Source of the DNA: an uncultured Bacilli bacterium
GTDB lineage: Bacteria; Bacillota_I; Bacilli_A; RF39; UBA660
Assembly (NCBI GenBank): GCA_947585595.1
Contig: CANPXB010000005.1
Location: 7,483-71,482 of the forward strand
Direction: 5' to 3'
DNA length: 64,000 nt
Part shown: piece after piece, positions 4,213 through 17,954 of the stretch
How positions within the stretch are numbered: position 1 is the stretch's first letter
How the letters are laid out: the number at the start of each line of letters is the position of its first letter
Program-made: the position numbers and the translations under genes
The notes under the pieces: generated by a model
Databases searched by the model: none
What the model saw: only the letters and a program-made list of their open reading frames with translations
What the model was told of the DNA's origin: nothing

Positions 4213-4236
4213 ACAAGTTTAACTTGTCTTTTTTTA
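4211..4236 (+). terminator. Intrinsic terminator of thrS
   Basis: agacaagtt / aacttgtct stem followed by a T7 run. Confidence 0.8.
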
Positions 4237-4295
4237 ATATTGTAATTGTCGGTTATTTAAGATATAATTTTAAGAGAATAGGGAGTGTGGCAAGT

Positions 4296-7200
4296 ATGAA
4301 GATTATGTTGATGGATGCTACAAAATTAGTAAATTTAACTCTTCCTAATGATGTATTTGGTAACTACTGGATAGTTAATGCTAATAAAGAAAACTTAGTT
4401 AGTGTTGAAGCATCTGACGGCAACTGGGTATTAAAAAGTAATAGTGAAGTTAAAGTATTTAGAAATGGAACAGCTGTTGATGATACTTTACTTGAATATG
4501 AAAAGTTTTATACCCTTAAGAATGTATTACTTGGGGATAGTTATGTTATTTATACTTGTCCAGTCTATGATGAAAATGCTTTACAATTAAATATATCTAT
4601 AAATAGTTTAAATGGAAATAATACTTGGTATATAGGTAATAATGGAGCTCAACTTGGTGATGGTAGTTCTAATTATCCAAATATTATTTCTTATGAGCAA
4701 CCAGGAGTAGCAAGAAATCAATTAAAGTTAGATTATAATAGCGGGGTTTATTCTGTTACAAATATAAATCCGCAAATTCCAATGTATGTAAATGGAGCAC
4801 CAGCAACTAGTGCTGATTTAAGATATGGTGATACAATTTTTATTTTAGGTTTAAAATTATCAATTATTAAAGATATCTTTTATATTAATAATCCTAATAA
4901 ATTAGTTAAATTTGATTCGCAAATGTTTAATATGCGTATGGTTCCTGAATTAGATTATTCTAAGATTCCAACTGAACCAGACCCAATTATTGAAATGTAT
5001 AAAAAAGAAGATTATTTCTTAAAGCCACCTCGTTTTGATGAAAGATTAGAAGAAAAGACTTTAGTAATAGATCCACCTCCAGCTGCCCAAAAGCAAGAAG
5101 AAATGCCAGCTATTTTAACAATGGGTTCAATGATGATGATGGGTATGAGTTCAATGATGACAGGAATTATGACTTTAACGAATGTTATTAATGGAACAAC
5201 TGAGTTATCTTCAGCTTTACCTTCTTTATTAACAGCAGCAGCAATGCTTTGCTGTATGCTTGTTTTACCAACAATTAGTAAAATGTATAATAAACATAAA
5301 AAAGTTGTTTATGAAAGAAAAAGACAAGCTACTTATAGTAACTATGTAAATAAAAAAAGAGAAGAATTCTTAACTGAAATGAAAAGAGAACAACAACTTT
5401 TAATTGAAAAATATATTCCATTAAAAGATGTTGGAGATATTATTCTTTATAAAAAGAGAAATTTATGGGAAAAGAATGTTGATGATTATGATTTCTTATC
5501 TTTAAGATTAGGTATTGGTTCTATTCCACCATTCTTTACAATTAACTATCCTGATGAACACTTCTCAATGGAAGATGAAGATAACTTAATGGGATATTTA
5601 AGAGAACTAGAAAAAGAAACAGATTTACTTGAAAATGTTCCAGTTACTTATTCTTTTGTGGAAAAATATATAACTGCTGTAATAGGGCAGAAGAGTGTTA
5701 CTAATCCGTTCTTAAGAGGATTATTACTACAAATCTTTGCTTATCATGGCTATGATTCTTTAAAGGTATGTGTATTTACAAATAAAGAGAATGAAAAATT
5801 CTGGGAAGATATTAAAGATTGTCCTTATTTCTGGGATGATAATAGAACAATAAGATTCTTTGGTACTAATACTGATGAAATTAGTCAAATAAGTTCTTAT
5901 TTTGAAGAATTACTTAGTAGTATTAAAGAAGCTAACGAAGATAGAGATACCCTTGGAGGACAAAAAGCAACAGCTAAGTTAACAACGAGATATTTAATTA
6001 TTACTGATGATATTGATTTGGTAAGAAATGTTAGTGTTATTCGTTCATTAATTGAATCAGTAGAATATGTTGGTATTAGTTTAGTTATATTTACAGAGAA
6101 GTTAAATTCTTTACCAAATGAAGTTGAACACTTTATCAGTGTTGATGAACGTACTGGTGGAGTATTTGAAAGAGTATTATCTGATAGTAGAAGAATTAAC
6201 TTTGTACCAGATTTTATGTATGGATCGTTAGAAAAATATACTTATGTTTTATCTAATATTCCAATAGCATTAAATGGTGGTAAGTTCCAATTACCAGCTT
6301 CATATTCTTTCTTGGAAATGTATAATGTATCTAATGTTAATCAATTAAATGCTTTAGCCAAATGGAAAGAAAGTGATCCAATTAATTCACTAGCTGTTCC
6401 AATTGGAGTTAATGAATATGGTGATTTATTTAAGTTAGATTTACATGAAAAAGCTCATGGACCACATGGTTTAATTGCTGGTATGACTGGTTCTGGTAAA
6501 TCAGAATTCATTATTACGTTTATTTTAAGTACAGCAATTAATTTCCATCCATATGAAGTACAATTTGTATTAATCGACTATAAAGGTGGAGGTTTAGCTG
6601 GAGCTTTTGAAAATAGAGAGACTGGTCTTAGATTACCACACTTAGCAGGTACAATTACTAACTTAGATGTTAGTGAGATTAATCGTAGTTTAGCTTCATT
6701 ACAAAGTGAGCTTAAAAGACGTCAAGCAGTATTTAATCAAGCCAGAGATAAAGTTGGTGAATCAACAATAGATATTTATAAATATCAAAGATTATATCGT
6801 AATGGTCAAGTAGATGAACCAGTATCACACTTGTTTATTATTTCCGATGAGTTCGCTGAATTAAAAGCTCAACAACCAGATTTCATGAACGAACTTATTT
6901 CAACAGCACGTATTGGTCGTTCACTTGGAGTTCACTTAATCTTAGCAACACAAAAACCTAGTGGTGTTGTTAATGACCAAATTTGGTCCAATGCGAAGTT
7001 TAAAGTCTGTTTAAAAGTTCAAGATAGATCAGATAGTCAAGAAATGATTAAGAGACCTGATGCGGCTTCATTAAAAGAAACTGGACGTTTCTACTTACAA
7101 GTTGGTTATGATGAATACTTTGCAATGGGTCAATCTGCTTGGACTGGCGCCCCTTATTATGAATCAGATGTTAGAAAGAAGAAAGTTGATAATTCAATAA

Positions 7201-8963
7201 CATTTGTTGATAATTTAGGTATGCCAATTAAAGTAGTAGAAGATGGACGTAATAGTGTTTCTGGTGTATTAAAAGGTGAAGAATTACCTAATATTATGAA
7301 ATACTTAGTAGATGTTTCTAAAAAAGAAAATATTAAGGTTAAGCAATTATGGCTTAATGCTTTAGCACCAGTTATATATATTGATGCTTTAAAAGAAAAA
7401 TATAGTTATAAGAAAATTACTTGTGATATTAATCCAGTTATTGGTGAATATGATGCCCCTAATTTACAAAAACAAGGATTACTTACAATGCCAATAACTA
7501 AAGAAGGTAACTGGATAGTTTATGGTATGGCCGATAGTGGTAAAGAAGAAATGATTAACTCTTTAGTTTATTCTTGTATTACAACTTATTCGCCAGCTGA
7601 ACTTAATATGTATTTACTTGATTTTGGAGCTGAAACTTTAAAAGTTTATCGTAAAGCCCCACAAGTAGGTGATGTTATCTTACAAAATGATGTTGATAAG
7701 GTAATTAACTTATGGAAAGTTATCAGTGATACAATAGCTAAGAGAAAGAAATTATTTGCTGATTATGGTGGTGATTATGTTTCTTATTCTAAAGCAACTG
7801 GTAAAGTAATTCCGAATATTATAATTATTATTAATGGATTTGAATTATATAATGAAAACTTTGGTGATGATACATTTGATTTATTAGCAACACTTACTCG
7901 TGATTGTCAAAAATATGGTGTTTACTTTATTATGACATCAACAACATCTAATGGTATTAGAAATAGACTTTCTCAATACTTGCCAAATCACTTAGTCTTC
8001 CAAATGAATGATAAATATGATTATTCATCATTACTATCTAGAACTAAGATTGAACCAGCTAATGTTACAGGACGTGGTTTAGTTAAATTGGAAGAAGTAT
8101 TTGAATTCCAAGCTGCTGTACCAACAGAAAAAGAAAAACTTAATACTTTTGTTTTAGATAAGATTAATGAATTATGTAAATTATATCCAGAAAGTGCTCC
8201 TAAAGTACCAGTATTACCAGAAGTAGTAACTGTTGCTTATTGTGCTGATGAAAGAAAAGGAGTCAATTCTATTCCAGTTGGTATTGAAAAAGAATCATTA
8301 CAAGTTAGAACATTCGATTTGACTAGAAGTACAGTTAATATTATTACAGGTATGGAATTTAATGAAATTAAGAACTTTGGTGAGTTATTTATTAGAGAAG
8401 TTGCTAATGTAGTAGGTAAGAATTGCTATGTTTATGACTTAGAAAAGGCTTATAAAGATTTAGAAAATTATACAACATATTATGATAATTCTATTTTAGA
8501 TAACTTTAAAGCTTTTGGTAAACAAGTATTTGACATGTATAATAAATATAAAGAATCTAGTTTTGATGTTAATTCATTAAATGAATATGGTGAATATGTT
8601 TGCTTTATTGTTGGAATTGATAAGTTTAAGAATATGTTAGGTACTGAATTTGATGGTGCTTATAGTGGTTTAATTTCAATGGTTAAAGGTATGCCTAAAG
8701 TAAGATTTGTAATTATAGATTCTAGTGATAATATTAAAAAACGTGAATTTGAGCCTTGGTATAAAGATACTGTTTCTGGTACAAGAGGTGTATGGATCGG
8801 TAATGGTATGGGTACACAATATACGATTAAATCAACGTTATCTTCAAGAGTATTATCAGCTAAACTAGAAAAGAATTTTGGTTATTTTGTAGACGGAAAT
8901 ACAACTGTTTTAGTTAAGGTAATTTCTGAAATGGGTGAAGAAGAAGTTTACGAGACATTATAA
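4296..8963 (+). CDS. essC: Type VII secretion system ATPase EssC/YukB (FtsK/SpoIIIE family)
   Basis: Start moved to ATG 4296 (GGGAG RBS), because the tracked 4224 start lies inside the thrS terminator. N-terminal FHA-like region. Two TM helices (AILTMGSMMMMGMSSMMTGIM and LLTAAAMLCCMLVLP). Three FtsK/SpoIIIE-type modules follow. The first has Walker A GMTGSGKSE (6480-6506) and Walker B LFIISDEFAEL. The second has GMADSGKEE (7524-7550). The third has no recognisable P-loop. Confidence 0.9.
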   Translation: MKIMLMDATKLVNLTLPNDVFGNYWIVNANKENLVSVEASDGNWVLKSNSEVKVFRNGTAVDDTLLEYEKFYTLKNVLLGDSYVIYTCPVYDENALQLNISINSLNGNNTWYIGNNGAQLGDGSSNYPNIISYEQPGVARNQLKLDYNSGVYSVTNINPQIPMYVNGAPATSADLRYGDTIFILGLKLSIIKDIFYINNPNKLVKFDSQMFNMRMVPELDYSKIPTEPDPIIEMYKKEDYFLKPPRFDERLEEKTLVIDPPPAAQKQEEMPAILTMGSMMMMGMSSMMTGIMTLTNVINGTTELSSALPSLLTAAAMLCCMLVLPTISKMYNKHKKVVYERKRQATYSNYVNKKREEFLTEMKREQQLLIEKYIPLKDVGDIILYKKRNLWEKNVDDYDFLSLRLGIGSIPPFFTINYPDEHFSMEDEDNLMGYLRELEKETDLLENVPVTYSFVEKYITAVIGQKSVTNPFLRGLLLQIFAYHGYDSLKVCVFTNKENEKFWEDIKDCPYFWDDNRTIRFFGTNTDEISQISSYFEELLSSIKEANEDRDTLGGQKATAKLTTRYLIITDDIDLVRNVSVIRSLIESVEYVGISLVIFTEKLNSLPNEVEHFISVDERTGGVFERVLSDSRRINFVPDFMYGSLEKYTYVLSNIPIALNGGKFQLPASYSFLEMYNVSNVNQLNALAKWKESDPINSLAVPIGVNEYGDLFKLDLHEKAHGPHGLIAGMTGSGKSEFIITFILSTAINFHPYEVQFVLIDYKGGGLAGAFENRETGLRLPHLAGTITNLDVSEINRSLASLQSELKRRQAVFNQARDKVGESTIDIYKYQRLYRNGQVDEPVSHLFIISDEFAELKAQQPDFMNELISTARIGRSLGVHLILATQKPSGVVNDQIWSNAKFKVCLKVQDRSDSQEMIKRPDAASLKETGRFYLQVGYDEYFAMGQSAWTGAPYYESDVRKKKVDNSITFVDNLGMPIKVVEDGRNSVSGVLKGEELPNIMKYLVDVSKKENIKVKQLWLNALAPVIYIDALKEKYSYKKITCDINPVIGEYDAPNLQKQGLLTMPITKEGNWIVYGMADSGKEEMINSLVYSCITTYSPAELNMYLLDFGAETLKVYRKAPQVGDVILQNDVDKVINLWKVISDTIAKRKKLFADYGGDYVSYSKATGKVIPNIIIIINGFELYNENFGDDTFDLLATLTRDCQKYGVYFIMTSTTSNGIRNRLSQYLPNHLVFQMNDKYDYSSLLSRTKIEPANVTGRGLVKLEEVFEFQAAVPTEKEKLNTFVLDKINELCKLYPESAPKVPVLPEVVTVAYCADERKGVNSIPVGIEKESLQVRTFDLTRSTVNIITGMEFNEIKNFGELFIREVANVVGKNCYVYDLEKAYKDLENYTTYYDNSILDNFKAFGKQVFDMYNKYKESSFDVNSLNEYGEYVCFIVGIDKFKNMLGTEFDGAYSGLISMVKGMPKVRFVIIDSSDNIKKREFEPWYKDTVSGTRGVWIGNGMGTQYTIKSTLSSRVLSAKLEKNFGYFVDGNTTVLVKVISEMGEEEVYETL

Positions 8964-8990
8964 AGGTTAACGGGTGTTAACCTTTTGTTT
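8963..8990 (+). terminator. Hairpin / likely terminator after essC
   Basis: aaggttaac-gggt-gttaacctt (9-bp stem) followed by TTTTGTTT. Confidence 0.5.
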
Positions 8991-9124
8991 ATTCAATTGA
9001 CTTTACATTTTATAAAGTGTATTATAAATATATAAGAGTATAATCGATGGTTGTGGGGAATTGGTCAGAAATGGTGTGACTATCATATATTCTTAAGTCT
9101 ACGATTTTAATAGGAGGTTTTATT

Positions 9125-9382
9125 ATGAATAATAATAAGGTCTGTGTAGATTTGATTGTACCTAGCATTGAAGAACGATACAATGTTTTCATTCCTGTTA
9201 ATAAGAAGACTATTGAAATTATATTCTTATTAAATAAAGCAATTAGTGATATGACTGATAATAGTTTTCCTATTTCAGATAATTTATCATTAATTAATGC
9301 TGATAATGGAGCGGTTTATGATGTTGATAAGACGTTTTTGGAAAACGACATTTTAAACGGGGCGAAAATTATATTGATATAA
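9125..9382 (+). CDS. yukD: YukD/EsaB-like small ubiquitin-fold T7SS protein
   Basis: 85 aa with a strong RBS (TAGGAGG). The sequence pattern parallels B. subtilis YukD as I recall it: N-terminal VCVDLIVP...YNVFIP and C-terminal DILNGAKIILI versus CGITNGDRLEIL. Sits next to essC. Confidence 0.65.
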   Translation: MNNNKVCVDLIVPSIEERYNVFIPVNKKTIEIIFLLNKAISDMTDNSFPISDNLSLINADNGAVYDVDKTFLENDILNGAKIILI

Positions 9383-10452: not shown

Positions 10453-10866
10453 ATGGCGGAAAAGACTTTAGAAGAAGATAAAATCTATTTTAATCTTAAT
10501 ACTTCTAACGAAAAATTAAACAAGTCACTTTCATCTTTTAAGGATAAATTTGATGCTGAAGGAATGGAAGGAAGCATTAATGAAATTGATGGATTATTTG
10601 ATGAGTTTCAAACTATATCAGATGAGGTTAATACATTAATGGAAGATAATGTAGGGACTTCACCAACTAATGGTGATGAGTCAGCTATAATGGGTGAATA
10701 TGGTGAAAAGGTCTATGGCTTATATGATGTCAATAAAGTTGCTTTTGATGATTTTGGTGAACACTTTAGTAATTATACAGCAGCATTAAATGATATTTCT
10801 AATAAAGAACAAGATTTTTCTGAAGAATCAGGACGTGTATATGGTGATGAAAACTTTATAAATTAA
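10453..10866 (+). CDS. Helical hypothetical protein; candidate targeting factor (Lap-like) for the downstream large substrate
   Basis: 137 aa, GAGGAGG RBS, acidic and helical. Its position between a WXG100 gene and a large substrate mirrors LXG-toxin operons. No motif recognised. Confidence 0.45.
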   Translation: MAEKTLEEDKIYFNLNTSNEKLNKSLSSFKDKFDAEGMEGSINEIDGLFDEFQTISDEVNTLMEDNVGTSPTNGDESAIMGEYGEKVYGLYDVNKVAFDDFGEHFSNYTAALNDISNKEQDFSEESGRVYGDENFIN

Positions 10867-10884
10867 TTTTTGGAGGTTATAGGT

Positions 10885-11136
10885 ATGTATGTAGATTATA
10901 AAAATATAAATGGTGCTTTAGAAAAAATAGATGAAGTATTAGAAAATTTGCCGAAAGCGATAGATGAACTTACTACTGACATTTTGTATTCTGACGTTTG
11001 TAATTTTAATCAAGCACGAGCTAAATTAAATAAATATGTAGAAGATTTAAAAGCATTTCGTGAAACATTAGTAAGTAATGTTAATAATATGAAAAGACTT
11101 GACAATGAGATAGAAGGTAGGAGTTGGGCGGCATGA
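10885..11136 (+). CDS. Small helical hypothetical protein; candidate targeting factor (Lap-like)
   Basis: 83 aa from ATG 10885 (GGAGG RBS). Its stop overlaps the next start in an ATGA (11133-11136), which implies translational coupling. Confidence 0.45.
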   Translation: MYVDYKNINGALEKIDEVLENLPKAIDELTTDILYSDVCNFNQARAKLNKYVEDLKAFRETLVSNVNNMKRLDNEIEGRSWAA

Positions 11137-13868
11137 CATGTTTAAAAGTTAATAAAGAAGAGCTACAGTCAATAAAGCAAGAATTATATGATATTAGACA
11201 TACTGCTTTCTTAGCTTATTATGATGATATAGCAAAATTTCAAGAGGCTGCAACTGATAAAGCAACGTCATGGGACAATTCGTATAATAAGTGGCAAAAC
11301 TTTAAAGATGAAGCTAGTAGTCAAGTTAATCTTGAAGATTATAGAAAAAAATGGCTTACAGAGCAAAATGTTGGTGAAAAATTTAACTTTCATGCAGATT
11401 ATAATTATGATGCCTATTATGCTAGAATAAATGAAATTGCTAAAGAAATGTTTGATGAGAAAGTAAAAGAATATAAAGATTTAAATTCAAAATTAAGGGA
11501 TGGGTTTTACGACTCTTATAAAAATACAATATGTAAGGTTGTTAATAATTTAGGATATGTAATAAGTGCTATAAATACATTTGAAAATAACTCCGTTAAT
11601 AATATCGATAGTTATTTATCTGAGGATTACTTAGTGAGAAATGCAGATGTTATAGCCTTTGCGGGTGAAGAATTTGTTCAAGCAGATGGTAAAAAAGTTG
11701 AGATTTCATCTTTAAAAATGAAGTCAGAAGATGGTGGCTTGCATGATATAGGTGAAGATGTTAATTGTCTTTATGCTAGAACTGTTGGAACTGCTAAAGT
11801 TGTAACTGTTGCAGCAATTGTAGCTGCTAATAGTGAAGACTTTCAAAATCTTAAGACTGACGAAGCTAGATGGGCTTATATTAATAATGTAATTGGTGAA
11901 ACAGTTGAAGCAACTGATGAAACTTTTGATGATTGGTATGATAAAGGTTATTTTGCAGCAACTACTCAAGAAGAATTTGCTGAATTATATGAAGATTTAA
12001 CTGGTATGGAATATGATCCAGATGCTGTTAATGCACATATGGATGCATATATTAATAAATTTGGTTTTGAAGATGAAGCTGATTTTGAACAATGGTTATT
12101 ATCTGGAGCAGGTTCAGTGTTAACACCATTTATGGTAAATAAGGCTTTAGAGAAAAATGGTCCTTTAACTGATGAAGAACTAGAACAAATGGGCTTACAT
12201 GATGTTGTTGAAGGAAGAGCAAAAGTAGGTATGGAAGTAACTGCTGAAGATGATGACGCATTATTAGGAGCGGCTGGTGGCTCAGGTGGTGGCGACGGAA
12301 GCGGGGTAAGCGTTAAGGTTGACGAGTTTGGTGAATCAGAATCAGAACCTGGACCACTTGATGATGTTATCGAAGAAACTGAAGCACCTGTAGATCCTGA
12401 AGTAAAAGATCCAAATGATGGTGTTATTCCTGATAATAGAACTAGTGGTGTGTTAGAAGATCCTATTCCTGATCCTCCTGGATTAGATAATAAGATGGAT
12501 AATGCGACAGCTGATCGTTTGGCTGAAGAAAGATTCTATGATCAATTTACTCCTGAACAATTAGCTGATTATAGAAATAATCAAAGAATTGAATATGAAG
12601 GATATACAATTGAAGAAGCAACTGATTTCTTTAGTGATGCAGGTTATAGTTTACCTGATGCTAAATTCTTAGCTGAAAATAAAGAACTTGGTATAACAGC
12701 ATTCTTAGCTGCTAAACAAAGCGCTGATATGGCTGATATGTCAAGACAAATTGCTCAAAGTGCTAATATGGATATGACGATGTTTGATACTAAATTTGAT
12801 GATGGAGCTTCATATCAAGATTTAGTAAATGGTAACACTAAAGCATTCTTAACTAATCCAAATAGTGATCCTAATGTTTCTAATGCTAAACAAAGTATGA
12901 CAAATGCTAAATCTAACTATGATTCAGCTGTAGATAAAGCTAATAAATCAGTTAATGAAGCTAATGAAAATAAAGAAAAATTAGATTCTGTTAAGAAAGA
13001 TATTGTTAAGAAATCAGGTAAAGATACAAGTAAATGGTCTGATGAAGATGTTGAACAATATAATGAAGCAGTTAATAAATATAACGATTCTGTAAAACAA
13101 GCTAATGAAGATGTTGCTAATGCGCAAAATGCTAAGACAGAATATGATAATTCAAAGACAGAATATGAAAATAGTAAAGAAGAATTCTATGAGAAGATAA
13201 AAGAGGAAGAAGCTTCAACCGAAACAGGAGATGGTAATAATGATTTACCAAATTCTGATGAACCAAATGGTGAAGGAACTGGTTCTTCTAATGATGCAGG
13301 TAATAGTAATCAGAATCCTTCTGAAACTCCAGGTAATGGAGGGCATGAAACACCTGAACCACCAAGTAATGGTGGAAATGATACACCTGGAAGTCCAAGT
13401 AATGGTGGACATGAATCAAGTGATACACCAAGTGGTGGAGGACAAAATGCTCCTGAAGAACCAAGTGGTGGTAATAATGAATCATCTAATAATGATGACT
13501 TAATACCTGATATTCCTAGTGGTGAAAGTGATAATAATCCTGGATCTGATGGTACTGGTTTTGGATTTAATAAATCATCAGGCGATAACAATCCTGGTAA
13601 TTATAATGATGGTAATAATGGTAATAACGGTAATAATGGAGATAATGGTTTAAGTGCTCCACCATCAAATGATGAATATGTTGGCGTTGATGATTCTGGT
13701 AGTGGCCTTGGTATAAGAGGCGATAGTGATTATAATCCAAATGAGCCTTCTACTATAAGTAATCCTGTGGATAATCCTAATTCAGAGTATATTTATATAG
13801 ATGAGTCTCAAGATGGTACAGATGATGATGAAAAACCTAGAGTATCAAATAGTGGTATAGGATTTTAA
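11133..13868 (+). CDS. Large (911 aa) candidate T7SS substrate with a helical N-terminus, coiled-coil module and low-complexity G/N/S/P tail
   Basis: ATG 11133 after GGTAGGAG. No strong TM helix and no recognised enzymatic domain. The C-terminal half is paralogous to that of the 17975..20488 product (KWSDEDVEQYNEAVNKYNDSVKQ versus KWSKEAVAEYKEAVKA). Followed by a DUF4176-like gene. Confidence 0.6.
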   Translation: MTCLKVNKEELQSIKQELYDIRHTAFLAYYDDIAKFQEAATDKATSWDNSYNKWQNFKDEASSQVNLEDYRKKWLTEQNVGEKFNFHADYNYDAYYARINEIAKEMFDEKVKEYKDLNSKLRDGFYDSYKNTICKVVNNLGYVISAINTFENNSVNNIDSYLSEDYLVRNADVIAFAGEEFVQADGKKVEISSLKMKSEDGGLHDIGEDVNCLYARTVGTAKVVTVAAIVAANSEDFQNLKTDEARWAYINNVIGETVEATDETFDDWYDKGYFAATTQEEFAELYEDLTGMEYDPDAVNAHMDAYINKFGFEDEADFEQWLLSGAGSVLTPFMVNKALEKNGPLTDEELEQMGLHDVVEGRAKVGMEVTAEDDDALLGAAGGSGGGDGSGVSVKVDEFGESESEPGPLDDVIEETEAPVDPEVKDPNDGVIPDNRTSGVLEDPIPDPPGLDNKMDNATADRLAEERFYDQFTPEQLADYRNNQRIEYEGYTIEEATDFFSDAGYSLPDAKFLAENKELGITAFLAAKQSADMADMSRQIAQSANMDMTMFDTKFDDGASYQDLVNGNTKAFLTNPNSDPNVSNAKQSMTNAKSNYDSAVDKANKSVNEANENKEKLDSVKKDIVKKSGKDTSKWSDEDVEQYNEAVNKYNDSVKQANEDVANAQNAKTEYDNSKTEYENSKEEFYEKIKEEEASTETGDGNNDLPNSDEPNGEGTGSSNDAGNSNQNPSETPGNGGHETPEPPSNGGNDTPGSPSNGGHESSDTPSGGGQNAPEEPSGGNNESSNNDDLIPDIPSGESDNNPGSDGTGFGFNKSSGDNNPGNYNDGNNGNNGNNGDNGLSAPPSNDEYVGVDDSGSGLGIRGDSDYNPNEPSTISNPVDNPNSEYIYIDESQDGTDDDEKPRVSNSGIGF
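13332..13490 (+). repeat. In-frame 33-bp tandem repeat, about 4.8 copies
   Basis: GNGGHETPEPP / SNGGNDTPGSP / SNGGHESSDTP / SGGGQNAPEEP / SGGNNESS, read from successive 33-nt units. Confidence 0.8.
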
Positions 13869-13886: not shown

Positions 13887-14261
13887 ATGAGAGAAAAGTA
13901 TTTGCCAATTGGAACAGTAGTTTTATTAAAAGGCGGAAGAAAAAGAGCAATGATTACAGGATTCTGCTCTGTTGCTCAAGAAAACCAAGAAAAAATTTAT
14001 GATTATAGCGGATGTGTTTATCCAGAAGGATATTTAAGTTCTAATCAAGTTTGTTTATTCGATCATGATCAAATTGAAAAAATTTTCTTCCTTGGCTTTG
14101 AAGATGATGAAGAAAAAGTGTTCAAAGATAAATTAAATAAAATTGTATCTTTAATTGAACATGATAATGGTAATACAAATGTTGATTCTGCAAATGAGCA
14201 ATCTAAGAATGAGAATGCAGAAAAAATCACACCATTTGCACCTGCTTCTGAGGAAGCTTAG
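13887..14261 (+). CDS. DUF4176-like protein (T7SS-associated), copy 1
   Basis: 124 aa, AAGGAGG RBS. N-terminal signature YLPIGTVVLLKGGRKRAMITGF...YDYSGCVYPEG...FDHDQIEKIFFLGF, as I remember the DUF4176 family. Paralogous to 20515..20955 and 20973..21248. Confidence 0.7.
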   Translation: MREKYLPIGTVVLLKGGRKRAMITGFCSVAQENQEKIYDYSGCVYPEGYLSSNQVCLFDHDQIEKIFFLGFEDDEEKVFKDKLNKIVSLIEHDNGNTNVDSANEQSKNENAEKITPFAPASEEA

Positions 14262-14267
14262 TAAAAA

Positions 14268-14290
14268 AGAAAGGCTTTTGCCTTTTTTTT
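14268..14290 (+). terminator. Intrinsic terminator
   Basis: aaaggc-tttt-gccttt followed by a long T run. Confidence 0.7.
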
Positions 14291-14311
14291 ACGTTTTTGA
14301 AAAAACTTATA

Positions 14312-14340
14312 TTGATTAATTTACATAATTCTTATATAAT
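14312..14340 (+). promoter_or_regulatory. Candidate sigma-A promoter for the second esx-like operon
   Basis: TTGATT (14312-14317), 17-nt spacer, TATAAT (14335-14340). About 110 nt of 5' UTR precede ATG 14452. Confidence 0.45.
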
Positions 14341-14451
14341 TAATGGTATAAGGATATGATGAGTAAGCTAGGGGTGTTTGGTTATAGGTCAAGCATTATA
14401 TTCTTAAAATTACTTGACTATATTCTTATAAAATATTATGGAGGTGGAAAT

Positions 14452-14751
14452 ATGTCAAATGGTTTAGCAATTGATACTGAATTAGTAAATGCTTCAGGTA
14501 GTGGAATTAATACTAGTGGTACTAATTTTCAAGAAGAGGTAAAAAGTTTTAAATCTCATGTATCAACAATTTTAGGTATTTGGTCTGGACCAGATGCTGA
14601 TGAATTTGCAAAAGCAGCTGACGAAGTTGGAAATTTACTTGATAAAGCATCTGTTACAGTTCAAGAGGTAGGTACTCATTTAGTTAAAACTGCAGATGCA
14701 ATGGATGCTACAGTAGAAGAAAACACAAGTAGAATACGTGGCGCAATGTAG
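14452..14751 (+). CDS. WXG100 family protein (EsxA-like)
   Basis: 99 aa from ATG 14452 (GGAGGTGG RBS). The tracked 14356 start adds an unlikely hydrophobic extension. Canonical motif GIWSGPDADEF. Confidence 0.8.
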   Translation: MSNGLAIDTELVNASGSGINTSGTNFQEEVKSFKSHVSTILGIWSGPDADEFAKAADEVGNLLDKASVTVQEVGTHLVKTADAMDATVEENTSRIRGAM

Positions 14752-14768
14752 GAAAGGAATGATAAATA

Positions 14769-15071
14769 ATGGCAGTAGATAAAGTAAATTATGGAAGTTA
14801 CAATAGTGAACATTCTGCTATAAATACATGTATTGGAAATATTGATAGCGAATTAGCTAGTGCTAATAAATATTTACAAGAAGCAACAAATGATGCTTCT
14901 GGTAATTGGGCTAGTACTGATATTGATGATTGGAATAAAATTTATTCTGATATAAATACTAAATTTGCTACACTTCAAAGATTAATGGAAGCTTCAGGTG
15001 TTTCAGTTGAAACTACTGAGACTACTGAAAATGCATATAGTGGATTTGGTTCAGTAGGTTCTGGAAATTAA
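14769..15071 (+). CDS. WXG100-partner-like small helical protein (EsxB-like)
   Basis: 100 aa, GGAAAGGA RBS. Central turn SGNWASTDIDDW. Immediately follows a canonical WXG100 gene. Confidence 0.55.
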   Translation: MAVDKVNYGSYNSEHSAINTCIGNIDSELASANKYLQEATNDASGNWASTDIDDWNKIYSDINTKFATLQRLMEASGVSVETTETTENAYSGFGSVGSGN

Positions 15072-15081
15072 TTAAAAAAAT

Positions 15082-15136
15082 ATGTACTACATAAGTAGTA
15101 CATTGTAAGTTGCTAAGCTTTAGCAATTTACAATGT
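15082..15136 (+). terminator. Two overlapping strong hairpins after the esx pair (terminator, attenuator or stabiliser)
   Basis: Hairpin 1: atgtactac-ataa-gtagtacat (15082-15103). Hairpin 2 has a 16-bp stem, acattgtaagttgcta / tagcaatttacaatgt (15100-15136). They share the 4 nt ACAT. Only a weak U tract follows. Confidence 0.5.
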
Positions 15137-15170
15137 ATTATTTGGATAAATACAGAAAGATGGTGTGATT

Positions 15171-16535
15171 ATGGCTGGATGGGATTTTACTGCGGATAGT
15201 AGCTTACAACTTGAACTTTCCGGTAGATTAAACAAAGGTGCTGATAATTTTGATACTAAGATAGGTGAGTTATATGGCCAAATTGACTCATTAGGTGCTC
15301 ATTGGGTTGGTGAAGATTATGATGCTTATAAAACTGGAGCTGATGGATACAAGACTGCGCTTCAGGATTTATCTGATGGCATTAGAATGTTTGGTAAACA
15401 TTTTGAAAATCTTTCTACAGGCACAGAAGGTTTAGCTGGTGAGTTGGCAAATCTTATTTTAAATGCTACTGGTAGTGGCGGTGCTGGTGGAACTGGTACC
15501 CAAAGTGGAACTGGAAGTCCAAGTGGAACGGGCTCACAAGCTGGTGACACTAACACTGGAGGAACTGGTACGCAAACTGGTAATGGAGATCAAAACACTG
15601 GTGGCGATGGAAGTCAAACTGGTAATGGAGATCAAAGCACTGGTGGAGACGGAAGCCAAACTGGTAATGGAAATCAAAGCACTGGTGGAGATGGAAGCCA
15701 AAATACTGGCGGAACTAATGATCATGGTAATACAGGTGGCAATGAAGGTACGGTTACTTCGACAACATATAAAAGTGGCGATATGATTGAAATTAATGGT
15801 GAGGGATACTCTTATTATGGAAGTGTAAGAAAACCTAATAATGAATTAGTTGATCTTGTCACTAAGTATAATCCAGATACTCAAAAAAATGAATTATATT
15901 ATCGCAATGCTGATGGAAGTGTTACACGTGCTAAAGCTAGTACTGTTAATGGAAACGGACAAACAGTAACATATGATGCTACTGTTGGAGATATAGGAGC
16001 TTCAAGAACAATAAATGCTCATGGATATAATGTTGATGTCGGAGTTAATGTTGATATTGATGGTATATTAATTACTAGTGGTAATAAGGATAAATTAATT
16101 GCTTCATCAGTTACATATAGTGGTGTTGAAGGATTACCAACTAATACTGGTGTATCTGGTGGTCCATCTCATAACTCTCAAGTTACATATACTTCTGACG
16201 GATCAACGTTAGATTCATTTACTTCAGGCTATGATGGTGGAACAGTTAATGGTTATACTTTAGTTAAAGCAACTGGATTACAATATATAACTAGTAATGC
16301 TAAAGAGGGTGTTGTTATCCAAATCCCACAAGGAACTGATTTACAGTGGGATCCAGCTTGGAATGTTAATGGTTATGATTTTGATACTAAAAATAATCCA
16401 ATTTATTTAAGCTGGGATTCAACAGCTGCTTCTGGAAAAGGTGCTTTCCATATTGTAGATGAATATGGTAATGTTATAAACAATAAAGATTTTACATTGG
16501 ATGGATTTAACAATGATGCTGGTCACTGGAAATAA
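15171..16535 (+). CDS. Candidate T7SS effector: N-terminal WXG100/LXG-like helical domain, Gly-rich repeat linker, unknown beta-rich C-terminal domain
   Basis: 454 aa from ATG 15171. N-terminal motif GAHWVGEDYDAYKTG. The linker is GGAGGTGTQSGTGS... with 14-aa repeats. The ~270-aa C-terminal region has no recognised family. Confidence 0.6.
   Translation: MAGWDFTADSSLQLELSGRLNKGADNFDTKIGELYGQIDSLGAHWVGEDYDAYKTGADGYKTALQDLSDGIRMFGKHFENLSTGTEGLAGELANLILNATGSGGAGGTGTQSGTGSPSGTGSQAGDTNTGGTGTQTGNGDQNTGGDGSQTGNGDQSTGGDGSQTGNGNQSTGGDGSQNTGGTNDHGNTGGNEGTVTSTTYKSGDMIEINGEGYSYYGSVRKPNNELVDLVTKYNPDTQKNELYYRNADGSVTRAKASTVNGNGQTVTYDATVGDIGASRTINAHGYNVDVGVNVDIDGILITSGNKDKLIASSVTYSGVEGLPTNTGVSGGPSHNSQVTYTSDGSTLDSFTSGYDGGTVNGYTLVKATGLQYITSNAKEGVVIQIPQGTDLQWDPAWNVNGYDFDTKNNPIYLSWDSTAASGKGAFHIVDEYGNVINNKDFTLDGFNNDAGHWK
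15573..15698 (+). repeat. In-frame 42-bp tandem repeat, 3 copies plus a partial
   Basis: Units start at 15573, 15615 and 15657 (caaactggtaatgga[g/a]atcaaa[a/g]cactggtgg...ggaag[t/c]). They encode QTGNGDQxTGGDGS. Confidence 0.85.
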
Positions 16536-16554: not shown

Positions 16555-17499
16555 ATGGCAGAAAGAAAATTCGATTATACAGAAGTCGGTGATATTTATA
16601 ATCAAATGTTAAGAATCACTGGCGACTCAGGAAGTGCTGATTCTATAGCAGGTATTTTACATAATTTAGATGAAGATATGAAAGCTAATGTTAATGTTAG
16701 TGAAATGGCTATATATGGTAGCTTAGCAAATCAATTATTACTTGATTGGGAGAATTCTTCTTCTAATTTTCCAAGTTATGTTGCTAAGTTTGGAAATTGG
16801 GCAACTGTAATTGCTCAAAGTGCAGGAGATTATAGTGAATTTGAAAAAGCAATAGCTGGCTTTAAAGACGAAAAAGATGGTGCTTATCTCGGTGCTGCTA
16901 GTGGTGGAATACATGATAATTATATAAATACTTCTTATTATAACCAATATCAGGTAGAAAATTATCAAAGTTTTCTTGCTGATGTTAATAATATGCGTCC
17001 TTTATATCAGTTGACTGGTGCAACTTATGCTACCACTGATTCAGAAAGTATTTTAAACAGACATAAAATAGCGACTTATGTTGTTGGAGGATTAGATATA
17101 TTAGGATTACTTTGGACAGGTATGGCAGGATATGGCCTTGCTGGTGCAACACCAGCTGCTGGTACGGATTTAGTACCTGTAAATCATACTCCTACTGGAC
17201 CAACAGGAACAACTGGAGCTCCTCAATTAACTGGTGGTAATACACCTTTATTACCAGGTAGTTCTTATGGTGCACCAATTAAAGATTTTTCTACAAGAGT
17301 AGCTCTTACTCAAGGACGTAATGAGTTTGAAAATGAAGTATTAAGATTAACTCTTGATGCTGCTAATAGAGCAGAGCAGGCTGGTGCAACTTTTGCAAGT
17401 ATGGATCAAAGTGCTCCAAATATTATTAAGTTCTTTAATGCTTTAGGAAAAGCTGTTGGTCAATTTAATGGAGCAACAGGAATATATACACCACTATAA
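16555..17499 (+). CDS. Hypothetical protein with a helical WXG/LXG-like N-terminus, one central TM segment and an unknown C-terminal region
   Basis: 314 aa, GAGGTG RBS. N-terminal helical region with LLLDWENSSSNF. Hydrophobic segment YVVGGLDILGLLWTGMAGYGLAG. Pro/Thr/Gly linker. No recognised domain. Confidence 0.5.
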   Translation: MAERKFDYTEVGDIYNQMLRITGDSGSADSIAGILHNLDEDMKANVNVSEMAIYGSLANQLLLDWENSSSNFPSYVAKFGNWATVIAQSAGDYSEFEKAIAGFKDEKDGAYLGAASGGIHDNYINTSYYNQYQVENYQSFLADVNNMRPLYQLTGATYATTDSESILNRHKIATYVVGGLDILGLLWTGMAGYGLAGATPAAGTDLVPVNHTPTGPTGTTGAPQLTGGNTPLLPGSSYGAPIKDFSTRVALTQGRNEFENEVLRLTLDAANRAEQAGATFASMDQSAPNIIKFFNALGKAVGQFNGATGIYTPL

Positions 17500-17543: not shown

Positions 17544-17954
17544 ATGGCTACTGCTACTAGAACAAGTGGAAATACCAAAGAAACAGCAAATTATGATGTT
17601 GATCCTTCTGGTTTTGGTTATACTATTATAAATGATGGTATAAGAGAAGAATTTGAATTTTTAACTAATGAATTGCCAACAAAATTAGATGAGGTCATGA
17701 CAGAAATTAATAATGCTGCGGCTATTGATACGGCGTTTGAATTTAATGATGTTAAGGATTTGTCTGTTGCGAGGGATGAATTACAAACAGATATAAATAA
17801 TTTAAAAACTGAATTATCTAATTTGTATTCGGCTTTTATGACTGATATTGATAATATTAATTATGAATTAGAATACAATTTTGGTTGGGTTATTATTGGT
17901 GAAGTTAAAGGTAAAACTGTTACTGAAACAGTTGCGGAACCAAATGATAATTAG
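17544..17954 (+). CDS. Small helical hypothetical protein (T7SS accessory or substrate candidate)
   Basis: 136 aa, AAAGGAGAG RBS, acidic and helical. No motif recognised. Confidence 0.45.
   Translation: MATATRTSGNTKETANYDVDPSGFGYTIINDGIREEFEFLTNELPTKLDEVMTEINNAAAIDTAFEFNDVKDLSVARDELQTDINNLKTELSNLYSAFMTDIDNINYELEYNFGWVIIGEVKGKTVTETVAEPNDN

Follow-up and report, generated by a model that had tools for sequence, protein, structure and literature searches.

An orphan all-beta domain on exchangeable hairpin carriers in a type VII secretion locus of uncultured gut Bacilli

We analysed a stretch of 64,000 nucleotides, hereafter the window, from contig CANPXB010000005.1 (assembly GCA_947585595.1) of an uncultured Bacilli bacterium. 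About 6 kb downstream of a gene for an EssC-like ATPase of the T7SS (type VII secretion system), the window holds an intact open reading frame (ORF) on the + strand (15171-16535; ATG start, MAGWDF...) for a protein of 454 residues, the target of this study. The listed ORF begins two codons upstream, at a GTG, and the exact 454-residue protein is recorded on 7 contigs. The protein has three parts: a WXG100-like helical hairpin, a Gly/Thr/Gln repeat linker, and a C-terminal domain of ~258 residues, which is modelled with high confidence as all-beta and has no match among known families or folds. In related loci this domain is found behind two kinds of hairpin, here called type A and type B, whose genes lie next to each other. 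The reading that we tentatively favour, and hold a little less than evenly probable, is that the protein is exported by the T7SS and that its beta head works outside the producing cell, where it probably binds a ligand on a surface.

An all-beta domain behind a WXG100-like hairpin

The C-terminal domain (residues ~197-454 and the stop codon; 15759..16535, + strand) was delimited by structure prediction, alignment, and negative searches. Modelled with AlphaFold2 (AF2) from an alignment of 20 sequences, it contains ~24 strands and 3 short helices, with a mean predicted local distance difference test score (pLDDT) of 93.3 and a predicted template modelling score (pTM) of 0.80. A first-pass annotation, made from the letters alone, had described this region as beta-rich, in agreement with the nearly all-beta model. 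It had also been unable to match the region to a known toxin and had suggested a structure prediction followed by Foldseek; this gave a confident fold without a relative in the PDB or BFVD, and the other searches were equally negative. Neither Pfam nor NCBIfam matched the domain at E ≤ 0.1, PHROGs gave no meaningful match, and a sequence profile of the whole domain retrieved 0 matches from the PDB at E ≤ 10. The best Foldseek E values were 0.17 (PDB) and 0.016 (BFVD), with TM scores ≤ 0.17 and root-mean-square deviations of 10-20 Å; these chance-level matches were EF-P/eIF5A small barrels and polysaccharide lyases. PDB profiles made separately for the N-module and the C-module of the domain found nothing significant (E 0.09-1). 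Known T7SS and polymorphic toxin families (nuclease, NADase, ADP-ribosyltransferase, lipid II phosphatase, lipase, pore former) showed no similarity by sequence or fold. The same annotation had considered that the domain might turn out to be a common cell-wall-binding module; wall- and glycan-binding modules (SH3b, LysM, CW_binding_1, PASTA, Ricin-type, Ig-like) gave no Pfam match at E ≤ 0.1 and no Foldseek match. A literature search returned no description of the domain.

The conserved positions of the domain are mostly small, aromatic, acidic, or amide residues. In an alignment of 19 sequences, S15, G16, Y29, S162, D207, G214, D243, G246, N247, G258, F259, N260, and G264 (domain numbering) are invariant, and D17, Y26, G98, G174, E244, and Y245 nearly so. 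This alignment has no conserved His, Cys, Arg, or Lys, the residues typical of nuclease, NADase, ADP-ribosyltransferase, deaminase, and protease sites. The composition, rich in Gly, Thr, Ser, Asn, Val, and Tyr and without Cys, resembles that of extracellular beta proteins.

The N-terminal part (residues 1-100; 15171..15470, + strand) was assigned using WXG100 profiles, AF2, and the alignment of type A N-termini. A single-sequence AF2 model of the whole target (pLDDT 42, usable for the N-terminal helices only) predicts two long helices at residues 10-42 and 48-98, at low confidence (pLDDT 50-60), with W45-V46-G47 as the turn between them. This is the layout of WXG100 proteins, i.e., a helix-turn-helix of ~100 residues with W-x-G in the turn. 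W45, G47, D49, and Y50 are invariant across nine type A N-termini. The profile scores stay below their thresholds: Pfam WXG100 (PF06013) scores 19.6 bits (E 1.1e-3) against a curated cut-off of 27.3 bits, and NCBIfam TIGR03930 scores 17.6 bits (E 3e-3) against 44.85. WXG100 is matched by 4 of 20 family members, the best at E 3e-5 and still under the cut-off, and a profile of the nine type A N-termini found weak EsxB and ESAT-6-like matches in the PDB (E 0.07-0.45). Pfam LXG (PF04740) does not match the target at E ≤ 0.1, and the helical N-domain spans ~100 residues, not ~200. The two modelled helices, the WVG in the turn, and the sub-threshold scores are consistent with the earlier assignment of the first ~95 residues to a WXG100-type hairpin, which is presumed to be a T7SS targeting and dimerisation domain.

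Between these parts lies a Gly/Thr/Gln/Ser/Asn linker (residues 101-196; 15471..15758, + strand) that is predicted to be disordered (pLDDT ~33). Tandem Repeats Finder reports a repeat with a period of 42 bp at 15552-15702 (3.6 copies, 82% matches), and a repeat search found three 65-nt copies, exactly 42 and 42 nt apart, with 83% identity. The three perfect-length 42-bp repeats noticed at first are therefore exact in length, but the copies are not identical. Two near-identical strains (P0025 and P0001; P numbers denote family members and L numbers related loci) differ by ~20 substitutions and indels in the linker; outside it, they differ by a single substitution in the N-domain, S11G, and by none in the 276 C-terminal residues. 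Another record, P0004, is a truncated version of the target protein (265 residues) with a frameshifted tail at its end, and could be a strain variant or an artefact of assembly. Other species have, in place of the linker, hundreds of residues with weak matches to RHS_repeat (sub-threshold, E 0.5-1.5) or Tcp10_C (likewise under the cut-off), both of which are beta-hairpin repeats, and some other family members have acidic repeats in its place. The target itself has no such repeats, and the long YD-repeat shell and Rhs core that characterise RHS/YD-repeat toxins were not found in it. A different repeat of ~60 residues (W.DH..ND.T..AHG...YADG..E...Y...PNG) is shared by the A and B chains within a locus, where it lies mid-chain in A and at the end in B (L015, 2516-4417 and 4469-5551; L016, 1669-4981); the L015 gene with this repeat crosses an assembly gap, and the L016 gene consists of two overlapping frames.

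Two carrier types and a fast-evolving passenger

The beta-domain family is small: the billions of proteins covered contain ~20 clusters. Among 1.84 billion representative proteins, 17 related clusters were identified at E ≤ 1e-10, with the domain match at the extreme C-terminus in all 17, and a word-indexed set of 5.8 billion proteins gave 5 matches by sequence and 10 by profile, family members only. All its members come from uncultured gut Bacilli with small genomes, where they are located in EssC/DUF4176 type VII loci. The genome that contains the window measures 1.55 Mb (96% complete), and genomes of its family 0.8-1.3 Mb. The domain is absent from 199 sampled genomes of this family and from 400 other sampled genomes of the order. 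Two related loci, L013 and L014, were retrieved with a 7-sequence subset of the alignment and belong to metagenome-assembled genomes named 'uncultured Bacilli bacterium' from the rabbit gut.

The N-termini that precede the domain fall into distinct types. Type A (MAGWDFTADS...HWVGEDY) is present in the window, L013-L017, P0002, P0006, P0007, P0009, P0012, and P0016; type B (...VFGxxGxxLLxxWxxNASTFxxFxxNFxxW) in P0003 (L002), P0008, P0010, P0011, P0013, P0017, P0019, and P0021; and a third, different N-terminus is found on P0005 and P0015 (L001). Type B shares homology with the N-terminal part of the 314-residue protein encoded next to the target (16555..17499, + strand) and of its family (hhalign 98.8%, E 4.8e-17), and it is also related to the 137-residue protein of the first module of the locus (BLAST E 2.6e-9). 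In each module of each locus, the gene right after an A-type gene is of type B.

The tree of the C-terminal domain is at odds with the carrier types: its well-supported branches force at least three switches between A and B, and a single clade of B carriers costs 148 log-likelihood units and is rejected (approximately unbiased test, p 4e-63). The C-domains of L017 (type A) and P0003 (type B) are 75% identical, and those of the window and L017 (both type A) 38%. By this phylogenetic evidence, the beta domain rides on either carrier and has switched at least three times. Part of the domain also occurs on its own. On the B chain of L013 (468 aa, 10784-12190), residues 353-424 match positions 15-95 of the C-domain profile and no others (27.5 bits; E 8.6e-8 among 543 ORFs), which indicates that the first ~80 positions form a separable N-module; L013 has this module on both its A and B chains. 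We infer that A and B chains pair, as EsxA/EsxB or PE/PPE proteins do, so that a passenger would work on either chain. Given the type B homology of its N-terminus, the 314-residue protein is likely a pairing partner of the target, or a second substrate, rather than an immunity protein.

The domain is thus exchanged among carriers, as in polymorphic toxins, and, again as in these, it varies at orthologous positions. In G144, a genome of the same genus, the orthologous A chain has 182 residues with an unrelated tail of ~80 residues and no beta domain, while every other gene of the second module is retained. The first-pass annotation had proposed an N-terminal carrier with a variable payload. This holds in that the domain moves between two carriers and that G144 has an unrelated tail, but within this clade the C-terminal domain is conserved and it is the linker, or middle region, that varies.

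We computed the ratio of nonsynonymous to synonymous substitution rates (dN/dS, Nei-Gojobori) between the window and L014. It is 0.049 for EssC (dS 0.55), 0.054 for HelD (dS 0.69), 0.15 for DUF4176, 0.39 for the N-domain of the target, and 0.51 for its C-domain (dS 0.83), values that are rough because dS is near saturation. Between L017 and L002 the C-domain gives 0.18. The tenfold contrast between the C-domain and EssC or HelD, at similar dS, is robust, and we read the C-domain value as an arms-race signature of fast amino-acid evolution.

A proposed exported head and competing explanations

The target is very likely a T7SS substrate, as the first-pass annotation had suggested from effector logic: it has a WXG-like N-terminus, the EssC-like gene lies upstream, and WXG100-like and three DUF4176 genes are found in the window. 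This T7SS context recurs in all 10 related loci recovered, and linkage to EssC is also seen in L002, L013, L014, and G144. In the mechanism that we tentatively favour, the type A hairpin (~100 residues) would pair with the type B hairpin of the adjacent 314-residue protein, and this pair, possibly with the upstream esx-like pair, would be recognised by the EssC ATPase. The repeat linker would be a disordered, rapidly changing spacer, in whose place the relatives would have long beta-hairpin-repeat stalks. The beta head would be the working end, acting outside the producer on a surface target, most likely by binding a glycan or envelope component in the manner of a lectin or adhesin; it would not be a cytoplasm-poisoning enzyme that requires a cognate immunity protein. 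The basis for this is the hairpin-spacer-head layout with its variable spacer, the extracellular-type composition, the conservation of aromatic, acidic, and amide residues but not of typical catalytic ones, the lack of an immunity partner, and the fast evolution of the surface. Overall, the target resembles a binding or effector head acting outside the cell more than it does a classic toxin that poisons its producer.

The search for an immunity partner bears directly on this choice. Both the 314-residue gene and the following 136-residue gene (17544..17954, + strand) had been put forward initially as protective partners, and neither is supported. The position directly downstream of the target, where LXG toxins have their cognate immunity gene, is occupied by the type B carrier homologue, and the 314-residue protein was rejected in this role on that homology. 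The 136-residue gene occurs in G144, where the beta domain is missing, and is absent from L001 and L002, which have the domain, so that a domain-specific immunity function is unlikely. This acidic helical protein, conserved in L013, L014, L015, L017, and G144, shows a weak match (hhalign 73%) to the 77-88-residue genes that precede other large proteins, and it is probably a helper of the large protein that follows it. Across the 10 loci, no gene family co-occurs with the beta domain save the generic T7SS families (DUF4176, WXG-like), and this weakens the case for a self-toxic antibacterial protein.

Several points weigh against an exported binding head. The WXG100 match of the N-terminus is under the Pfam cut-off, the hairpin model has low confidence, and the pairing of A and B chains is deduced from gene order and domain swapping only. 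The conserved D207, D243, and E244 could be catalytic carboxylates, e.g., of a glycosidase or lyase. The missing immunity gene is negative evidence, limited to the sensitivity of BLAST and hhalign, and protection could come from a gene elsewhere or from a variable region. The genome of the window gave no match to YukC/EssB (PF10140) or to the N-terminal domain of EsaA (TIGR03929). Finally, the PDB profile matches to streptococcal Siglec-like adhesins, a choline-binding protein, and LPXTG proteins are not significant (E 0.09-1) and are given no weight.

The main and a serious alternative, in our estimate less probable, is that of a classic polymorphic antibacterial T7SS toxin that kills or inhibits competing Gram-positive bacteria, for example by an attack on the wall or membrane from the outside in the way of the lipid II phosphatase TelC, with the producer shielded by an unrecognised immunity protein or intrinsically insensitive. 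The shuffling of the cassette between different T7SS-targeting N-termini, its presence or absence at an orthologous position within a genus, and the high dN/dS of the C-domain would all suit such a toxin, as would the sub-threshold YD/RHS-like repeats upstream of the domain in some members and an active site that D207, D243, and E244 could form. Antibacterial toxins are also the usual export of LXG-type loci with DUF4176 chaperones (PMC12478183). These features have to be set against the 10 loci, which lack any downstream gene that co-varies with the domain; the gene after it in L002 encodes a generic helper of 77 residues that is also found in modules without the domain. Arrays of orphan toxins or immunity genes are missing, and no known toxin family resembles the domain in sequence or fold. 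If the toxin explanation were true, the domain would represent a novel toxin fold and its producer would be protected in an unusual way. If instead it is a binding head, it would imply a surface-display or adhesion role for T7SSb in reduced-genome commensals. Under either, the swapping between A and B carriers predicts heterodimeric export analogous to that of PE/PPE proteins.

Much less probable is that the protein serves an atypical T7SS as a structural or accessory component, e.g., a cap or conduit outside the cell that makes up for the absent EssB and EsaA. The lack of recognisable YukC/EssB and EsaA in the genome and the constant position of the gene in several related genomes would be expected of such a part. 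It fits poorly with G144, which has the same EssC and module without the domain, with the absence of the domain from the 400 other genomes of the order, with a dN/dS ten times that of EssC, and with the swapping of carriers, all of which are unlike a core component of the machine. Least probable of all is a beta pore-forming toxin whose Ser/Thr/Gly-rich variable middle (domain residues ~120-165) refolds into a membrane hairpin after oligomerisation, as in aerolysin or ETX/MTX2. The all-beta, Gly/Thr/Ser/Asn/Val/Tyr-rich domain does have short alternating stretches in this segment (e.g., SSVTYSG, QVTYTS), but they are not kept across the family, the segment is modelled as packed (pLDDT > 90), and Foldseek finds no aerolysin, ETX, or leukocidin relative (TM ≤ 0.17). 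The remaining probability is reserved for other functions.

Comparison with known systems places the target close to WXG100 proteins with C-terminal extensions (ESAT-6/EsxA-EsxB) and to the LXG toxins of T7SSb. These share with it an N-terminal helical hairpin with a WxG turn, a location beside an EssC ATPase, small helical partners, and DUF4176 (Ltc) chaperones, a middle region that is variable or disordered, and a C-terminal passenger exchanged between carriers. LXG toxins differ in their LXG domain of ~200 residues, against the ~100-residue N-domain of the target, in their Lap1/Lap2 partners (DUF3130/DUF3958), for which the locus gave no matches, and in their adjacent immunity gene, for which no counterpart was found at the target loci. 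The target further differs from both in a passenger that has no toxin family or fold match and sits on either of two presumably paired chains. LXG toxins whose enzymatic payloads are known, and whose immunity genes lie next to them, dominate T7SSb biology, and fusion substrates of WXG/LXG type are an already known kind. What is new here is an orphan, apparently unmatched beta fold as the passenger, restricted to uncultured gut Bacilli; its occurrence on either of two adjacent carrier chains without a candidate immunity partner; and its setting in reduced genomes where EssC is the only recognisable part of the apparatus.

Two further comparisons are useful. TslA of Staphylococcus aureus is a T7SS lipase with the reverse domain order, and TelC is a lipid II phosphatase that acts extracellularly; together they illustrate that T7SSb passengers may depart from the scheme of an N-terminal LXG domain and a C-terminal toxin acting in the cytoplasm, and may act outside the target cell. 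They have no homology to our protein, and they differ from it by their defined enzymatic folds and cognate immunity proteins, none of which were found at the target locus. The mycobacterial PE/PPE proteins, especially PE_PGRS (T7SSa), offer an analogy only. Here too, two families of helical hairpins that are thought to pair have adjacent genes, a repetitive, Gly-rich linker with a unique domain at the C-terminus may extend either of the chains, and the products evolve fast and are associated with the surface or with secretion. There is, however, no sequence relationship beyond a sub-threshold PPE match of a neighbouring 131-residue ORF (E 0.007); the host is a member of the Bacillota with an EssC-type system, not an actinobacterial ESX, and the pairing in our system is inferred. 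More speculatively, and with clear doubt, one could see the stripped-down T7SS of small-genome gut Bacilli (EssC without recognisable EssB or EsaA), with its paired A/B hairpins and interchangeable passengers, as a Firmicute counterpart of PE/PPE, in which the beta domain would have a new fold and would act as a rapidly evolving recognition head that attaches to the surfaces of host or partner cells.

The type VII locus around the target

The EssC-like ATPase (1579 aa; 4224..8963, + strand), the presumed export motor, is matched by Pfam FtsK_SpoIIIE in two stretches (E 1e-44) and is 95% identical to its L014 orthologue. It is followed by a conserved gene of 85 residues (9125-9382; no Pfam match at E ≤ 0.01), several WXG100-like genes of ~100 residues, the gene of a 914-residue protein (11124-13868), and a DUF4176 gene, after which the second module begins. 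At its opening, a terminator-like hairpin (14265-14290; 11-bp stem, then a T run) is immediately followed by a promoter-like site (14312..14340, + strand; TTGATT-17-TATAAT, 10/12, on consensus matches only). The module then comprises an esx-like pair, the target (type A), the 314-residue protein (type B), the 136-residue protein, an 837-residue protein, and two DUF4176 genes, with HelD next. This second module, including a helper of ~140 residues and a protein of ~750-840 residues, also precedes HelD in L013, L014, L015, L017, and G144, and likewise in L016.

The first protein of the esx-like pair is WXG100-like (100 aa from MSNGLAID; 14449..14751, + strand; Pfam WXG100 E 6.7e-5, TIGR03930 E 1.8e-6) and conserved in L013 and L014. 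The second, taken from the ORF list, is a small helical protein of 100 residues without a WXG motif (14769..15071, + strand); it is 60% identical to L014_8314 and occupies the same position in L015, L016, L017, and G144. Between this pair and the target gene lies an RNA hairpin with a perfect 25-bp stem (15092-15144, + strand; minimum free energy -31.4 kcal/mol, z -5.4), a stability that none of 200 shuffled sequences reaches. It lacks a clear T tract on its downstream side. Its role may be to stabilise RNA or to terminate transcription in part, and it might set the ratio of the abundant small WXG proteins to the larger substrates.

The 314-residue type B chain has a helical N-terminus of ~110 residues, a marginal hydrophobic segment (best window score 1.45), a Pro/Thr/Gly stretch, and a variable C-terminus. 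Only its N-terminal 140-176 residues are conserved in the L013 and L014 orthologues, and the C-terminal part differs at every locus. We considered the B chain as a conserved membrane anchor and rejected this, as the hydrophobic segment is marginal in three loci and absent from L014 and L015. The 837-residue protein (17975..20488, + strand), the large substrate of the second module, has a strongly hydrophobic segment (Kyte-Doolittle 2.98 at residue 106), is a coiled coil in its C-terminal part, and is related to the 914-residue protein and to large proteins of L013, L014, and L002. The 914- and 837-residue proteins have a common C-terminal helical region (BLAST E 1e-13 to 1e-15) and are each followed by DUF4176, and neither has a Pfam match to LXG or to a toxin domain. 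The two DUF4176 genes at the end of the module (20503-20955 and 20973-21248, + strand; PF13780, E 8e-25 and 3.6e-25) are of the Ltc type; such proteins are chaperones of T7SSb LXG toxins that bind the disordered middle region (PMC12478183).

Some observations concern genes at the margins of this system. Upstream of thrS and of the T7SS locus, the window encodes a serpin-domain protein of 543 residues (547-2178; Pfam E 7e-51). The T7SS locus of G144 (L019, contig C6) is rearranged in order relative to the window. It includes a 269-residue protein (11165-11974) with a WXG-like segment, ADAWQGDTYQMF, at its C-terminal end, i.e., in reverse order, and a 205-residue protein (14113-14730) with a DUF4176-like part behind an extra N-terminal region. 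The N-terminus of the 269-residue protein was considered as a relative of the N-module and discarded (E 0.028 over 20 positions, not significant). The P0005 locus (L001) encodes a protein of 380 residues (8226-9368) whose N-terminus is helical; by eye, a segment at its C-terminus, FDCSGFVAWVLKEAGY, resembles NlpC/P60, and the protein may be an LXG-type cell-wall hydrolase effector.

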